A stretch of 8,578 nucleotides of DNA from Amoebophrya sp. A120 (lineage: Eukaryota; Protista; Dinoflagellata). The DNA lies in NCBI GenBank assembly GCA_905178155.1, contig CAJINV010000095.1, positions 1 through 8,578 on the forward strand, read 5' to 3'. A model generated the notes under the pieces. That model saw nothing but the letters and a program-made list of their open reading frames with translations. It made no database searches and had not been told where the DNA came from. The position numbers and the translations under genes were made by a program. Shown here piece after piece: positions 1,455 to 7,376 of this stretch (the first letter of the stretch is position 1; each line of letters begins with the position of its first letter).

Positions 1455-2558
1455 GTCCTCTGGTGCAGAGGACTCACGACGTCTAGGTTGTCTCAATGAA
1501 AGAACCTCCTAGAATGAACATGTATTTGTCGAAAGCGAGAAGTACAAACCTGGCCTATGGTTCAGAACATCAAGTAGGGAGGTGTTTATTGTTGGTCTTC
1601 AGAAATGTTTGCTACAACCACTCTTATGCACTACAATCAATGGTACGAAAAAAAAAAACGAGAAGGTCTCAAACCGCATTGCGTCGAGATGGAAGCAGTG
1701 CTTGCACAGAAGATGATGAACCGGAGGTAAAGGAGTTCATCTTCATGCTACAGAAAAATCTTGGTGTTCAGTTCATGTGGTAAAAAAAATTGGTTCTCTG
1801 CGATTCGTCACATGACGCCACCACCGGACCACGTTGAGAGAAGTAGTGTAGCTATACGTTGGAAATACCAGAATCAGAAATACTTCATTCCACGTAAGTT
1901 GTACTCTTCCTGATTCAGAATCAAACTCATTTTGTTCGAAGGCAACTTTTGCGATTTTTGCTCTCTCCAAAACCCCTTGCCCGCACAAGAACAGTTCCCA
2001 TAGTGCGAAAAACTACAACAAAGCCACATCTTCTATATGTATTCTTCCCGCCCACAGTGGAGACTAGAGCTGCTAGACACGACCGTGCATAGTGCGTAGA
2101 TACTGTAGTTGCTTGGTGTTCTCGTTGTAAAATAATCTCGTCAGGAGGTCGACAACTTTTTTCCCCATACCGCGACGTACTCAGAGTAAAAAAGGATCCT
2201 ATAACACATCAGGAGCTTCTCACGCGGCTAGGAAGAGGAATATTAACCAGAGCAGTGCCTGTTTTCGTTGTTCTTCTATCTTTGGTGGAAGGTGTGCTAG
2301 CATCGACTGGAACAAGTGAAACCGAACTTTTTAGTACTACTAGTAGGAGAAGCGTGCGTAAGTAGTCTTGTTGTTGTGTAGTCCTCCGACTTCTAGTGTA
2401 GAAGAAGGTGGTAGAAGTTGCACGAACATCAAGAACGAAAACACAGAAGAACGCAAGTTAGTAGCTGCATCACAAAAAGCGAAAATTCCGGAAGTTTGCG
2501 ACGAGCATCCTCCCGAGGTGGCTGGAAGCAACACCTGCGATCGCACCCTCTCTGACAC

Positions 2559-2812
2559 TATCAAGTGCAAATATCATTGGGTCTGGAAGAATGCAAGTTT
2601 GTCATGCTTGTCTCGCATGACTGAAGCGTTTGTCATGCGTGTCCAAGAAGATACCCTTTTACTTGTCATGCAAAACGCACTTTGTCATGCGGAAAGCGCA
2701 ACACTGAGCCGCGCAAATATTTCTCATACTTGGCTGTGCATTACAGACGAGCACTCACTATTCACAACTCAGCATTACAAGTTTCCAGACCGAGACATAT
2801 TTGCATTTGATA
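2559..2812. mobile_element. TIR introner/MITE, family A, just upstream of the gmd ATG (5' UTR or N-terminal extension)
   Basis: TATCAAGTGCAAATAT...ATATTTGCATTTGATA; perfect TSD GACAC (2554-2558/2813-2817); interior closely similar to 5879-6134. Confidence 0.9.
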
Positions 2813-5800: not shown

Positions 5801-7376
5801 CCGGTGTTGCGCAGATTTGCGCCGGGATCAAGGACCGCATCACCTTGGGAAACCTGGACGCCAAGCGCGACTGGGGCCTATCAAATGCAAAAATGTCTGG
5901 GTCTGGAAGATTGCGAGATTGGTCATGCTTGTCTGGCATGACCAAAAAGTTTGTGATGCGTGTCCAAGAAGAGACCCTTTTGCTTGTCCTGCAAATAAAA
6001 CGCAGTTTGTCATGCGAAAAACGCAACACAAAGAAGCGCAGATATTTCTCATGCTTGGCTGTGCATTACAGAGCATTCACTACTCCCAACGCAGCATTAC
6101 AAGTTTCCAGACCCAGACATATTTGCAGTTGATAGAGCCACGCCTACGACTACGTGCGGGGCATGTGGATGATGCTGCAGCAAGACGTGCCCGAGGATTT
6201 TGTAATCGCTATGAATTGCAAAAAAGTACTATCTGATACTAGGAGAAATCGCATGACAAACTTCCTTAGCATGATGAGAAGGGAAATTTGCAATGCGGAT
6301 TTGATACCTTGAGAAGGATAACAGGAAAGTTGTATATGCATGACTGCAATTAGAAGTATAGTACCAGTGCGGTGCTTTTGCTATGCATAATCGCAACCGG
6401 GCGACAGTACTCCGTGCGCGACCTGTGCGAGCTGTCCTTCCGCATGTATCAAATGCAAATATGTCTGGGTCTGGAAACTTGTGATGCAAGGAAGGGAATA
6501 GTGCAAACACTCTAATGCGCTGCCCAGCATGACAAGTTTTGCCGTGGTTCTGACTTGCGTAATCCGCATAAGAAATTGCGTTGTTGCATGACAGGCAAGC
6601 GGAGCTCTTCGCGGCCACGCAATACAGAACTCAGAGTCATGCCAGACTAGCATGACAATCTCTCAGACCCACACATATTTGCATTTGATAGCATGGCAGG
6701 ACACCCGATCCGATGGCAGGGCAGCGGGGTGCATATGGCGTTCTCAAATGTTTACTACAGTGCTCGCTGTCACATGATTTGCCATGCAAAATCCCTGTCT
6801 CTATCCGCCTGATGTCTACAAGATCACGCGCCATCGCACGACGAATGCTGCACGCATGAGGAAAAGATCCGTTCCAAATTTGTAATGCGAGGCACGCAAA
6901 CTCCACGTCCGGCGGCCCCTATTTAGCTTCAGCTTCACTTTTGCTATTCTTGCATCACAAGTTCATGTGACAGTTATCACTGTAAGTAAGCCCATTTGAG
7001 AACTCCATAGTGCACGAAGAGGGTGTCGATACGGTCACGGGGAAGGTCGTCATCGGTGTCAGCGAGAAGTATATCCCACGAAAAAACTGTTTCACTGTGG
7101 TGATTTTGCGAGACCTGCATCACAAGTTTGTTACACATGAAACAGAAAATTTGCCATGCGCGGTTCCCAAGGGAAAACACGCTTGAAAATCCAATGTCTT
7201 GCAGGTGTAGCAAGACAAACATTTTGGTGTTTCATTTTCTGCATCACAAGTTCACAGTGAAACAGTTTTTTCTTGCGATAACGTACTACCGACCAACGGA
7301 AGTCGAGACGCTGTTGGGCGACCCAACCAAGGCGAAGAAGAAGATGGGCTGGAAGACGGAGATCGGGTACTGCTGA
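2831..7376 (+). CDS. gmd: GDP-mannose 4,6-dehydratase, 15 coding exons (approx. 2831-2854, 3077-3118, 3338-3473, 3711-3750, 4048-4087, 4374-4482, 4713-4798, 5066-5109, 5403-5460, 5794-5877, 6139-6208, 6394-6445, 6695-6732, 7014-7070, 7285-7376); true start and last exon uncertain
   Basis: The manual join is 972 nt with no internal stop: [323 protein letters not shown]. It contains the GITGQDG Rossmann motif, ASTSE (catalytic T/E), YxxxK (YAVAK), [14 protein letters not shown] and RPTEV. Junctions can slide within the 5-bp repeats. Confidence 0.95.
2856..3072. mobile_element. TIR introner, gmd intron 1 (distinct TIR)
   Basis: TATGAGAGTGCAAAACTCCCCCTC...GAGGGGGAGTTGTGCACTGTCATA (22/24); perfect TSD CACCG; splits LIT/GITG. 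Confidence 0.92.
3120..3333. mobile_element. TIR introner, gmd intron 2, family B
   Basis: TATGCAAGAAAAAAACTGTGTAAGTGTAA...TTACACTTACACACTTTTTTCCCTGGATA; TSD TCTCC/TCTCT; splits EFL/LEK. Confidence 0.9.
3475..3706. mobile_element. TIR introner, gmd intron 3, degenerate family B-like
   Basis: TATCCAAGAAAAAT...ATTATTCTTGCATA; TSD ATTCA/ATTCT; splits CSI/LEKV. Confidence 0.85.
3752..4043. mobile_element. TIR introner, gmd intron 4, family A-related
   Basis: TATGCATTGCAAACATCCCTGGAACT...AGTTCTAGGGATGTTTGCGGGGCATA; TSD GGGCA/GGGCG; splits NLG/AQSH. Confidence 0.9.
4089..4369. mobile_element. TIR introner, gmd intron 5, family A
   Basis: TACGCATTGCAAATATGTC...GACATATTTGCACCTGATA; TSD GTACA/GTAGA; splits PEY/TA. 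Confidence 0.88.
4483..4712 (+). other. canonical GT-AG spliceosomal intron (gmd intron 6)
   Basis: G|GTAAGT...CACCTCAG|G joins ELYG and KVQE; no terminal inverted repeat and no TTGTCATGC motif seen. Confidence 0.9.
4800..5061. mobile_element. TIR introner, gmd intron 7, family A
   Basis: (C)ATCAAATGTAAAAATGTCTGGGTCTGGAAG...CTTCCAGACCCAGACATTTTTACAATTGAT(A), 29/30; perfect TSD TTGGG; no AG is available at the 3' junction in any register. Confidence 0.92.
5111..5398. mobile_element. TIR introner, gmd intron 8 (distinct TIR)
   Basis: TATCCTGATTAAAAATGTTCCCACACCAGAGT...ACTCTGGTCGTGTGGGGACGTTTTTACTCAGGATA; TSD TAAAT/TAGAT; splits AVN/GILF. Confidence 0.9.
5461..5793 (+). other. GT-AG intron (gmd intron 9), A-rich acceptor
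   Basis: AAG|GTATAT...AAAAAAAG|GTG joins VTKK and VTTG; no clear TIR. Confidence 0.82.
5879..6134. mobile_element. TIR introner, gmd intron 10, family A
   Basis: TATCAAATGCAAAAATGTCTGGGTCTGGAA...TTCCAGACCCAGACATATTTGCAGTTGATA; TSD GGGCC/GAGCC; splits RDWG/HA. Confidence 0.92.
6210..6389. mobile_element. TIR introner, gmd intron 11 (degenerate TIR)
   Basis: TATGAATTGCAAAA...TTTTGCTATGCATA; perfect TSD ATCGC; splits VIA/TG. Confidence 0.86.
6447..6690. mobile_element. TIR introner, gmd intron 12, family A, inverted relative to 2559-2812 and 5879-6134
   Basis: TATCAAATGCAAATATGTCTGGGTCTG...CAGACCCACACATATTTGCATTTGATA; perfect TSD GCATG. Confidence 0.92.
6734..7009. mobile_element. TIR introner, gmd intron 13 (distinct TIR)
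   Basis: TATGGCGTTCTCAAATG...CATTTGAGAACTCCATA; perfect TSD GTGCA; splits GSGV/HEEG. Confidence 0.9.
7072..7280. mobile_element. TIR introner, gmd intron 14, family B
   Basis: TATCCCACGAAAAAACTGTTTCACTGTG...CACAGTGAAACAGTTTTTTCTTGCGATA; TSD AAGTA/ACGTA; splits EKY/YRP. Confidence 0.9.

Follow-up and report, generated by a model that had tools for sequence, protein, structure and literature searches.

The GDP-mannose 4,6-dehydratase gene (gmd) of Amoebophrya sp. A120 is interrupted by short TAT…ATA transposons that are missing from its joined transcript, and mismatches between the two copies of each duplicated target are consistent with a single position of the cut, 1 nt before and 4 nt after the element. 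As a whole explanation, we propose that these transposons are cut from pre-mRNA at this one register by a spliceosome that ignores the first and last intron bases, a reading to which we assign a probability of about 0.5. The elements almost certainly belong to the published class of A120 introners, and the intron class is thus already known; what is new here is the register of the cut, pinned by mismatches between the duplicated copies.

The gmd locus and its elements

The window that we analyzed comprises 8,578 nt of contig CAJINV010000095.1 and holds gmd exons spanning 2340..7366 on the forward strand, with the ATG at 2831 and the last exon or exons beyond the window. This assignment draws on a transcript contig, on protein identity, on a PF16363 match in four of the five exons scanned and on a spliced frame of 321 codons without a stop. 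The motifs GITGQDG, ASTSE and YAVAK are present in that frame, bearing out the sequence-only reading of the gene as a stop-free dehydratase with its catalytic motifs. The product is identical to the annotated A120 protein GSA120T00026211001 (P0003) over 160/160 residues, after which that model runs 16 residues into the element at 4800, and it matches the strain A25 protein P0009 at 291 of 320 positions; the latter identity, the intact frame and the joined contig rule out a dead gene.

Two canonical GT–AG introns, at 4483..4712 (donor GTAAGT) and 5461..5793 (donor GTATAT) on the forward strand, appear as skips of 230 and 333 nt in the transcript contig. A third intron opens at 7367 with the GT donor GTACTG and leaves the window with its acceptor outside (7367..8578, forward strand); beyond 7368 the loose end of the contig carries the protein on in agreement with the ortholog P0004. 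The coding sequence therefore has at least 15 interruptions, rather than the 14 counted earlier. Within the third intron lies a 203-bp tandem repeat of 4.7 copies with 92% matches (7619..8578).

The window contains 15 TAT…ATA elements with 5-bp target duplications, and our recount of their places, ends and duplications was identical to the earlier one. The left end is TAT in 13, TAC at 4089 and CAT at 4800, and ATA closes all 15 on the right; six of the duplications match perfectly, eight differ at one position and one differs at two. A strict scan returned 14 elements, whereas 100 dinucleotide shuffles averaged 0.26 and never exceeded 2. The identity of the flanks is 0.87 when they are compared over 5 bp and no more than 0.31 over any other length from 2 to 9. 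The copies are 149–323 bp long, lack coding capacity and carry repeated TGT(C/G/A)ATGC boxes at 11.9 per kb, as opposed to 1.3 per kb outside the elements. Ten of them have relatives, up to 95% identical, among 149 fetched A120 loci, and five have none there. Two elements lie outside the part of the gene covered by the transcript contig: one upstream of gmd (77..399, its duplication with two mismatches) and one nested within the third intron (7397..7545), recognized by its ends and duplication.

Absence of the elements from the transcript

A single 2117-nt contig (depth 50.4) passes over each of the 13 elements that lie within the transcript, in every case by the length of the element plus 5, and over both GT–AG introns. 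It comes from run X5, whose status as a "probable RNA run" is a guess. Five of the elements are missing also from the annotated protein P0003. Elements and normal GT–AG introns thus coexist in one gene, and the junction dinucleotides of the elements are arbitrary: no register supplies an AG at 3072, 3706 or 5061. On absence from the assembled transcript, coexistence with spliceosomal introns and the missing AGs, the sequence-only reading has held up. The raw RNA runs X9–X11 gave 141, 3 and 50 matching reads, of which nearly all overlapped in part and almost all fell on repeats of the elements; none was informative for a junction.

We are confident that removal occurs from RNA. The joined form could instead be DNA, arising by genomic excision in some nuclei, as with ciliate IESs, or the contig could be a processed retrocopy, and the guessed RNA nature of run X5 leaves room for either. 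Both are nevertheless very improbable: the contig also lacks the two GT–AG introns, which would survive excision from DNA, and four RNA-like runs contain 0.16–0.19 of the words, close to the exon share, as against 0.72–0.73 in two others. The published A120 introns, moreover, are described as backed by RNA-seq (PMC7789003).

A probable single cut register within the duplication

Elements whose two 5-bp copies differ are informative, as the mismatch reveals which copy's base stays. We assembled ten such junctions, seven from the transcript contig, two from the annotated A120 protein P0122 (orthologs agree at one) and one from the distant homolog P0153. An intron of 1 nt, the element and 4 nt, with four left-repeat bases kept, fits all ten, whereas every other register fits three to seven. 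If each intron were cut at random, register 4 would fit with a chance of 0.004 and any single register with a chance of 0.04.

The upper bound of the register derives from three junctions in one contig of one gene. In the elements 3120–3333 (intron 3119..3337), 3475–3706 (3474..3710) and 3752–4043 (3751..4047), all like those below on the forward strand and drawn in the 1/4 register, the copies differ at repeat position 5 and the right base is kept, so that at most four left bases can remain; at 3475 the resulting residue is Leu, as in P0003, P0004 and P0009. In the TAC-ended element 4089–4369 (4088..4373) the mismatch is at position 4 and the left base is kept, which requires at least four left bases, and the alternative base would create a stop. 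The left base is likewise kept at position 3 in 5111–5398 (5110..5402), requiring at least three, and at position 2 in both 5879–6134 (5878..6138) and 7072–7280 (7071..7284).

The remaining introns were drawn in the same register. The 5′-UTR element 2559–2812 (2558..2816, a 259-nt skip) and the element 2856–3072 (2855..3076, a 222-nt skip) have perfect duplications and do not themselves pin it. Element 4800–5061 (4799..5065, a 267-nt skip) is the sole window exception to the first T of the element, and with its preceding G the intron begins GC in the 1/4 register. Element 6210–6389 (6209..6393) has the weakest inverted repeat (12/20), and folding predicts no terminal stem for it. Element 6447–6690 (6446..6694) is a relative of 2559 and 5879, which share family and orientation, but lies in the opposite orientation (reverse scores of 86–88 versus 20 forward). 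Element 6734–7009 (6733..7013) ends TATGG..CCATA.

Earlier, one repeat had been thought to leave together with the element. The net length agrees with this, but the cut is not at the repeat boundary. Uniform removal of the element with its left repeat satisfies three of the ten junctions and gives a stop at 4089; removal with the right repeat satisfies seven and gives Q at 3475, where the A120 protein has L. As neither rule works at every junction, the cut falls inside the repeats, and from these sequence comparisons a single fixed 1/4 register for all cuts is probable. A search for homologs of the L038 exon returned none, and a representative search led to distant homologs, informative at one of two junctions. 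Locus L013 is SNF2-like.

The cut could instead vary among copies, as suggested by the legends of Figs. 3 and S23 in Farhat 2021 and by the motifs of its Table S4, in which T at +2 goes together with A at −2 (PMC7789003). Of the nine non-canonical motifs that are most frequent in A120, eight have this A, as would be expected from a mirror register or from aligner choice. The three upper-bound junctions are also compatible with register 1, and a single register would fit by chance 4% of the time. A codon-model test of 40 mismatched copies (47 mismatches) leaned against the register at positions 4 and 5, the left base being better in 3/10 and 5/8 cases, respectively, with no stop codons either way. 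We nonetheless regard variation as unlikely. Register 1 is excluded by six junctions and at least four left bases are required by three, while an aligner cannot assign a cut to one position within two identical repeat copies, so that the 285 of 357 copies with perfect repeats would produce apparent variability.

Further copies in A120

Pooled over 288 copies, the ends begin with T (.99), A (.99) and T (1.0), which were used for detection, and have A at.86–.93 at positions 11–13, which were not. When the repeat was left out of the search criteria, 379 candidates were obtained, and 226 of these have a perfect 5-mer repeat. Duplication identity in the further copies is 0.75 at 5 bp and 0.27 at 6 bp, and the peak of flank identity at 5 bp excludes a duplication of 4 or 6 bp. 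In the six largest families both orientations are about equally frequent (44:33, 15:20, 13:10, 8:13, 10:7 and 9:5).

For the 231 further copies that are oriented in predicted coding frames, we examined the intron ends under register 4. Neither G at +1 (71/231 versus 72.8 expected) nor AG at the intron end (22/231 versus 20.6 expected) is enriched. GT..AG occurs at register 4 in six of the 231, and G[T/C/A]..AG at any register in 25, so that these introns as a set lack U2-type ends. T at +2, with the T+2/purine+3 pattern of U2-type introns, is present in 231/231, a register-dependent count that follows from the element end itself. A hint in the window that changes in the right copy create AG (3/4) was not upheld in these copies. 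Among ends that had played no part in detection, the 5′ end never departs from the first T (0 variants in 185), whereas the mirror base at the 3′ end does so in 6 (p=0.03). This asymmetry is small; four of the six variants are U·G wobbles also predicted by a stem model, several positions were tested and the count becomes 1 versus 6 with the window copies.

The mobiliser

With their short, non-coding sequences, terminal inverted repeats, target duplications and subterminal boxes, the elements have the sequence hallmarks of MITEs and are classed here as non-autonomous DNA transposons. Their TA..TA ends, the hallmark of the integrase-type DDE family IS3EU/GingerRoot (PMC10045372, PMC12730594), suggest a mobiliser of that kind, an assignment that we hold tentatively, at slightly less than even odds. 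Copy 6734 matches the fungal IS3EU ends TAYGG..CCRTA, whereas IS3EU/GingerRoot duplications are usually 6 bp and those seen here are 5 bp; the passages on these families make no mention of alveolates (PMC10045372, PMC12730594). A 5-bp duplication is that of hAT5, which is absent from PMC6004678.

Gozashti 2025 classes most A120 families in the rows examined as TIR DNA transposons, and its family 38 is listed as 'Ginger, 5-bp TSD, TA/TA termini' with integrase-like homology; by description, it differs from the window copies in being ~810 bp long with ORFs (PMC12130899). A 5-bp duplication with these ends had earlier been taken to match no familiar superfamily hallmark, and the mobiliser to be perhaps uncharacterised. 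The ends do have a counterpart in IS3EU/GingerRoot and family 38; our search for a transposase, on the other hand, found none within 479 kb. There, 148 of 192 element ends pair within 450 nt, five pair at 481–972 nt and 39 are unpaired, and none of the ten ORFs that adjoin long or unpaired ends matches a Pfam family. A 30-nt end pattern gave 0 matches to viral contigs, and Rfam gave 0 matches.

The removal machinery

We lean towards a relaxed spliceosome, one that no longer checks GT–AG, as the machinery of removal. Under the register, the element's TA falls at +2/+3, where the canonical donors also have it (GTA in 9/9); this favours a spliceosome over a nuclease–ligase pathway, although such a match has a 1-in-6 chance by itself. 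All nine of the commonest A120 non-canonical motifs in Table S4 have T at +2, and 83 of 89 spliceosomal proteins were found (PMC7789003). Against a spliceosome count the lack of any trace of its end preference in the 231 copies, the old introns, which remain strictly GT–AG, and the terminal stem, which would cover the donor and the branch region. The A120 listing, with one PRP8, one U2AF65 and one U2AF35 (PMC7789003), also differs from the duplicated U2AF of Fritillaria.

A separate endonuclease and ligase might instead read the base of the terminal stem or TAT-N7-AAA, cut 1 nt before and 4 nt after and join the exons, as proposed for euglenids; we consider this the less probable route, at about one chance in three. 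It would account for the absence of base preference at +1, −2 and −1 in the 231 copies, for the few (25/231) with a usable G[T/C/A]..AG, and for the symmetric ends and the occurrence of both orientations. In 11 of the 15 window copies, folding gives a probability >0.9 to one or more of the three outermost base pairs. The stems of euglenid introns, in which +4/+5 pairs with −6/−7, resemble these in geometry, and euglenid introns reportedly leave as circles without lariats. In the transcribed strand, however, G·U pairs do not outnumber A·C pairs (153 versus 182, pairs 1–20, p=0.13), pairs 4, 5 and 7 are only 37–58% Watson–Crick, copy 6210 is removed despite its lack of a predicted terminal stem, and the agreement between the element's TA and the GTA donor would be a coincidence.

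The sequence-only reading had envisaged a removal system distinct from the GT–AG spliceosome that reads a terminal stem at a fixed offset. The fixed offset (1 nt 5′ and 4 nt 3′, 10/10) and the arbitrary junctions survive; a stem read as RNA gains no support from the G·U and A·C counts, nor does the separateness of the machinery from a register that recreates the TA of the GTA donor.

Relation to known introns

The novelty of the system had been overstated, as the A120 system itself, its TAT-N7-AAA ends and its 5-bp repeats are in print. The introners of Farhat 2021 come from the same organism, by protein identity, and are repeated across the genome; they are ~240 nt long, with ends of TAT, seven variable bases and AAA, direct repeats of 3–5 nt (5 bp in the Fig. 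S19 legend), arbitrary junctions and both intron types within genes (PMC7789003). In that account the position of the splice sites is said to vary with respect to the hairpin, and the borders are given as unknown, whereas we find a 5-bp repeat throughout and one register.

The nonconventional introns of euglenids share a terminal stem, direct repeats at the junctions, a proposed MITE origin, a longer unpaired 3′ tail and normal introns alongside, and circular products are reported for them (PMC3935182, PMC11282704). Their stems differ in having CA/TG at +4,+5/−7,−6 and a purine/pyrimidine preference at the ends, as opposed to TAT/ATA at +2..+4/−7..−5, pairing from +2/−5 and no end preference here (PMC3935182, PMC11282704). 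The introns of Fritillaria borealis are likewise transposon-derived, have inverted and direct repeats and escape GT–AG, but are described with preferred ends AG-AC and AG-AT and a spliceosome with duplicated U2AF, whereas A120 ends are free and its U2AF subunits are listed singly (PMC11282704, PMC13326754).

Proposed mechanism and implications

In the mechanism that we propose, an integrase-type DDE transposase of the Ginger or IS3EU/GingerRoot kind would bind the TAT-N7-AAA ends and TGT(C/G/A)ATGC boxes and insert the element either way round. The intron, whose product is seen in the transcript and whose register we infer from the ten junctions, would then consist of the last left-repeat base, the element and the first four right-repeat bases. 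The 1/4 register leaves exactly one repeat, so that codons are restored for any target sequence, and either orientation would work because both ends carry the same motif. The element's TA would be set at +2/+3, its place in normal GTA donors, and paired or protein-bound ends would fix the acceptor distance in place of AG. Removal of this kind may plausibly have begun by co-option at targets that end in AGG, for which the 1/4 register yields a true GTAT…AG intron, with relaxation later.

Put more broadly, a ruler-like second splicing chemistry, or a spliceosome that makes no demand on the end bases, may measure its cuts from the ends of any TA…TA element, whichever way round it lies, 1 nt upstream and 4 nt downstream, and so leave no scar from any insertion with a 5-bp duplication. 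Such a rule, which we advance as a possibility at somewhat under even odds, would also explain the TT-NN introns of A25 and make the elements a 5-bp branch of IS3EU/GingerRoot domesticated across the genome.

A single register would give defined places for the cuts and for a lariat branch or circle junction, for tens of thousands of such introns, and would correct the A120 gene models at every insertion with unequal repeat copies. Should it hold generally, it would explain how housekeeping genes such as gmd and RPB1 can be filled with transposons while their proteins remain unchanged.

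Elements of gmd and their removal

We scanned the window for TAT-like…ATA pairs that have inverted ends and a repeat on either side. Of the 19 candidates obtained, four overlap the 15 elements described in the sequence-only reading and were dropped. All 15 were recovered, and the tallies of ends and repeat mismatches made in that reading proved exact on recount. A stricter scan found 14 elements (100 shuffles gave 0.26 on average), and flank identity was highest at 5 bp (0.87). Removing the element at 77–399 yields no long open frame within positions 1–520, and this element may be intergenic or lie inside another repeat. 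A stretch of about 75 bp is present twice in near-identical form, at 414–488, after that element, and at 1381–1455.

In a protein collection search, the closest match by identity to one window exon was a partial Amoebophrya sp. A120 protein (98%). Splicing the window yields a protein with no difference from this A120 one over 160/160 residues. It also matches another ortholog at 305 of 322 residues and the protein of a second strain, A25, at 291 of 320, and four of the five exons scanned carry the Pfam GDP-mannose 4,6-dehydratase domain. The annotated A120 gmd protein (GSA120T00026211001; "partial", 176 aa) runs 16 residues into the element at position 4800 (4800–4850) and then ends. Both the window and a joined contig carry the gene further; the public gmd annotation is truncated. 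The third GT intron opens at 7367, and the gene extends past the window end; within this long intron (7367–8578) we observe a nested TAT…ATA element at 7397–7545 as well as a satellite with a 203-bp unit and at least 4.7 copies.

One 2117-nt contig of sequencing run X5, which is guessed to be RNA, skips every one of the 13 elements that lie from 2340 to 7366, and each skip equals the element length plus 5; the contig also skips both GT–AG introns. None of the 11 runs listed is on record as an RNA source; the four guessed to be RNA contain 0.16–0.19 of the words, and three raw RNA runs left the exons uncovered. The evidence for removal is this one contig of one run and, for the first five coding elements, the annotated protein.

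At least one related copy elsewhere apparently remains in RNA. At 5013–5062, about 130 RNA reads of run X9 join the end of a related copy to foreign sequence, and there are 68 loose ends behind 5062 among the X9 reads.

Copies beyond the window

Searching with a 30-nt end pattern gave at least 149 loci from contigs JACKZZ01…, 479 kb once merged. In the loci listed, a detection that ignored the repeat gave 379 candidates. The 5-mer repeat is perfect in 226 and has at most two mismatches in 288; the 91 with more than two were dropped. The pooled ends of copies in these loci read TAT, seven variable bases and AAA. A second detection in the loci listed gave 357 copies; a self-trained coding model, which chooses the correct frame of gmd, could orient 231 of them. 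Across these 231, neither orientation predominates in the six largest families, both element ends share the same profile, and neither G at +1 (71 versus 72.8 expected) nor AG at the end (22 versus 20.6) is enriched. Taking copies out restores long frames in the loci listed; the longest spans 4773 nt and involves seven copies. The box TGT(C/G/A)ATGC is about nine times denser inside elements and points inward close to each end, an arrangement expected of transposase sites, the role that we infer for it.

At one locus (L069, 1117–5972), the gene for the largest subunit of RNA polymerase II (Pfam RNA_pol_Rpb1_1-3) contains the same elements as interruptions. One of them is 972 bp long, may be composite and has a perfect 5-bp duplication.

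A probable fixed cut register

Where two repeat copies differ, the product reveals the base kept. Three window junctions retain the right base at position 5; four others retain the left one, at positions 4, 3, 2 and 2. Keeping four left bases (register 4, an intron of 1 nt + element + 4 nt) is the sole register fitting all seven. Locus L030 encodes a protein identical to another annotated A120 protein, P0122. One of its copies, mismatched at positions 2 and 4, encodes Lys only when the left base is retained at both, and this Lys is present in A120, A25 and a third ortholog; in a second copy the left base at position 1 is kept. In L038, retaining the left base at position 4 yields Phe, and a distant homolog has Phe there; the position-5 site of this locus is uninformative. 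Register 4 fits 10 of 10 informative junctions, and the other registers fit 3, 4, 6, 7 and 7; if each intron were cut at random, register 4 would fit with a probability of 0.004, and some single register with 0.04. A single gene supplies the upper bound of the register, and in a codon-likelihood test 40 mismatched copies showed no clear preference overall and leaned against register 4 at positions 4 and 5.

The three insertion phases are unequally represented (120/60/51, p = 1e-8; 231 oriented copies in L001–L149, among the matches listed), and under register 4 the excess is in phase 0. Spliceosomal introns usually show such an excess, and a preference for particular target sequences is another possible cause of the bias.

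Candidate removal machinery

Our first choice, at a probability of about 0.55, is that a relaxed spliceosome removes the elements, because of the match of TA to the GTA donor, the constancy of the 5′ T, a near-complete spliceosome and the natural route to co-option that targets with AGG would provide. Under register 4, TA falls at +2/+3, and canonical donors read GTA in all nine examined (three in the window, six in L030). Canonical acceptors at both loci are rich in A and lack a clear polypyrimidine tract. Among 185 copies detected without the first three bases in the loci listed, the 5′ T has 0 variants and its 3′ mirror 6 (p = 0.03, uncorrected). The one window exception reads GC, the tolerated donor variant. 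Against a relaxed spliceosome, there is no base preference at +1, −2 or −1, and the terminal stem would mask donor and branch site. The single PRP8 and U2AF genes listed for A120 in Farhat 2021 (PMC7789003), where its spliceosome is described as near-complete, also count against it. G+1 and G−1 normally pair in the second splicing step.

Removal by a nuclease-ligase acting on the terminal stem is a possible reading to which we give appreciably less than even odds. Its model is the euglenid introns, for which such an activity is suspected (PMC3935182, PMC11282704). This reading is weakened by the element at 6210, which is removed yet has no predicted terminal stem, and by G·U pairs showing no excess over A·C (153 versus 182).

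Relation to published introns

The intron class of the window is already known: sections of Farhat 2021 (PMC7789003) report A120 elements with the same ends and repeats, in 29,850 copies, with borders left unknown. In the rows examined of Gozashti 2025 (PMC12130899), most families are classed as TIR DNA transposons of unknown superfamily, and family 38 is given as "5-bp TSD, TA/TA termini". According to excerpts of PMC10045372 and PMC12730594, the DNA-transposon group IS3EU/GingerRoot has TA..TA ends with usually 6-bp duplications, and hAT5 has a 5 bp duplication. Among the papers listed by our literature searches on these introns, none gives a fixed register for Amoebophrya, although subscription journals or the figures of Farhat 2021 could contain one. 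In Table S4 of that paper (PMC7789003), the nine commonest motifs of A25 are all TT-NN, and the repeats of this strain begin with TTA. Under register 4, TT-NN would follow if the last repeat base were T and the element began with TA.

The gmd gene of the window is a real, expressed-looking case of this known intron class. What we add, namely the register, the symmetry of orientation and a lead towards IS3EU/GingerRoot, makes the question of how such introns are removed testable.
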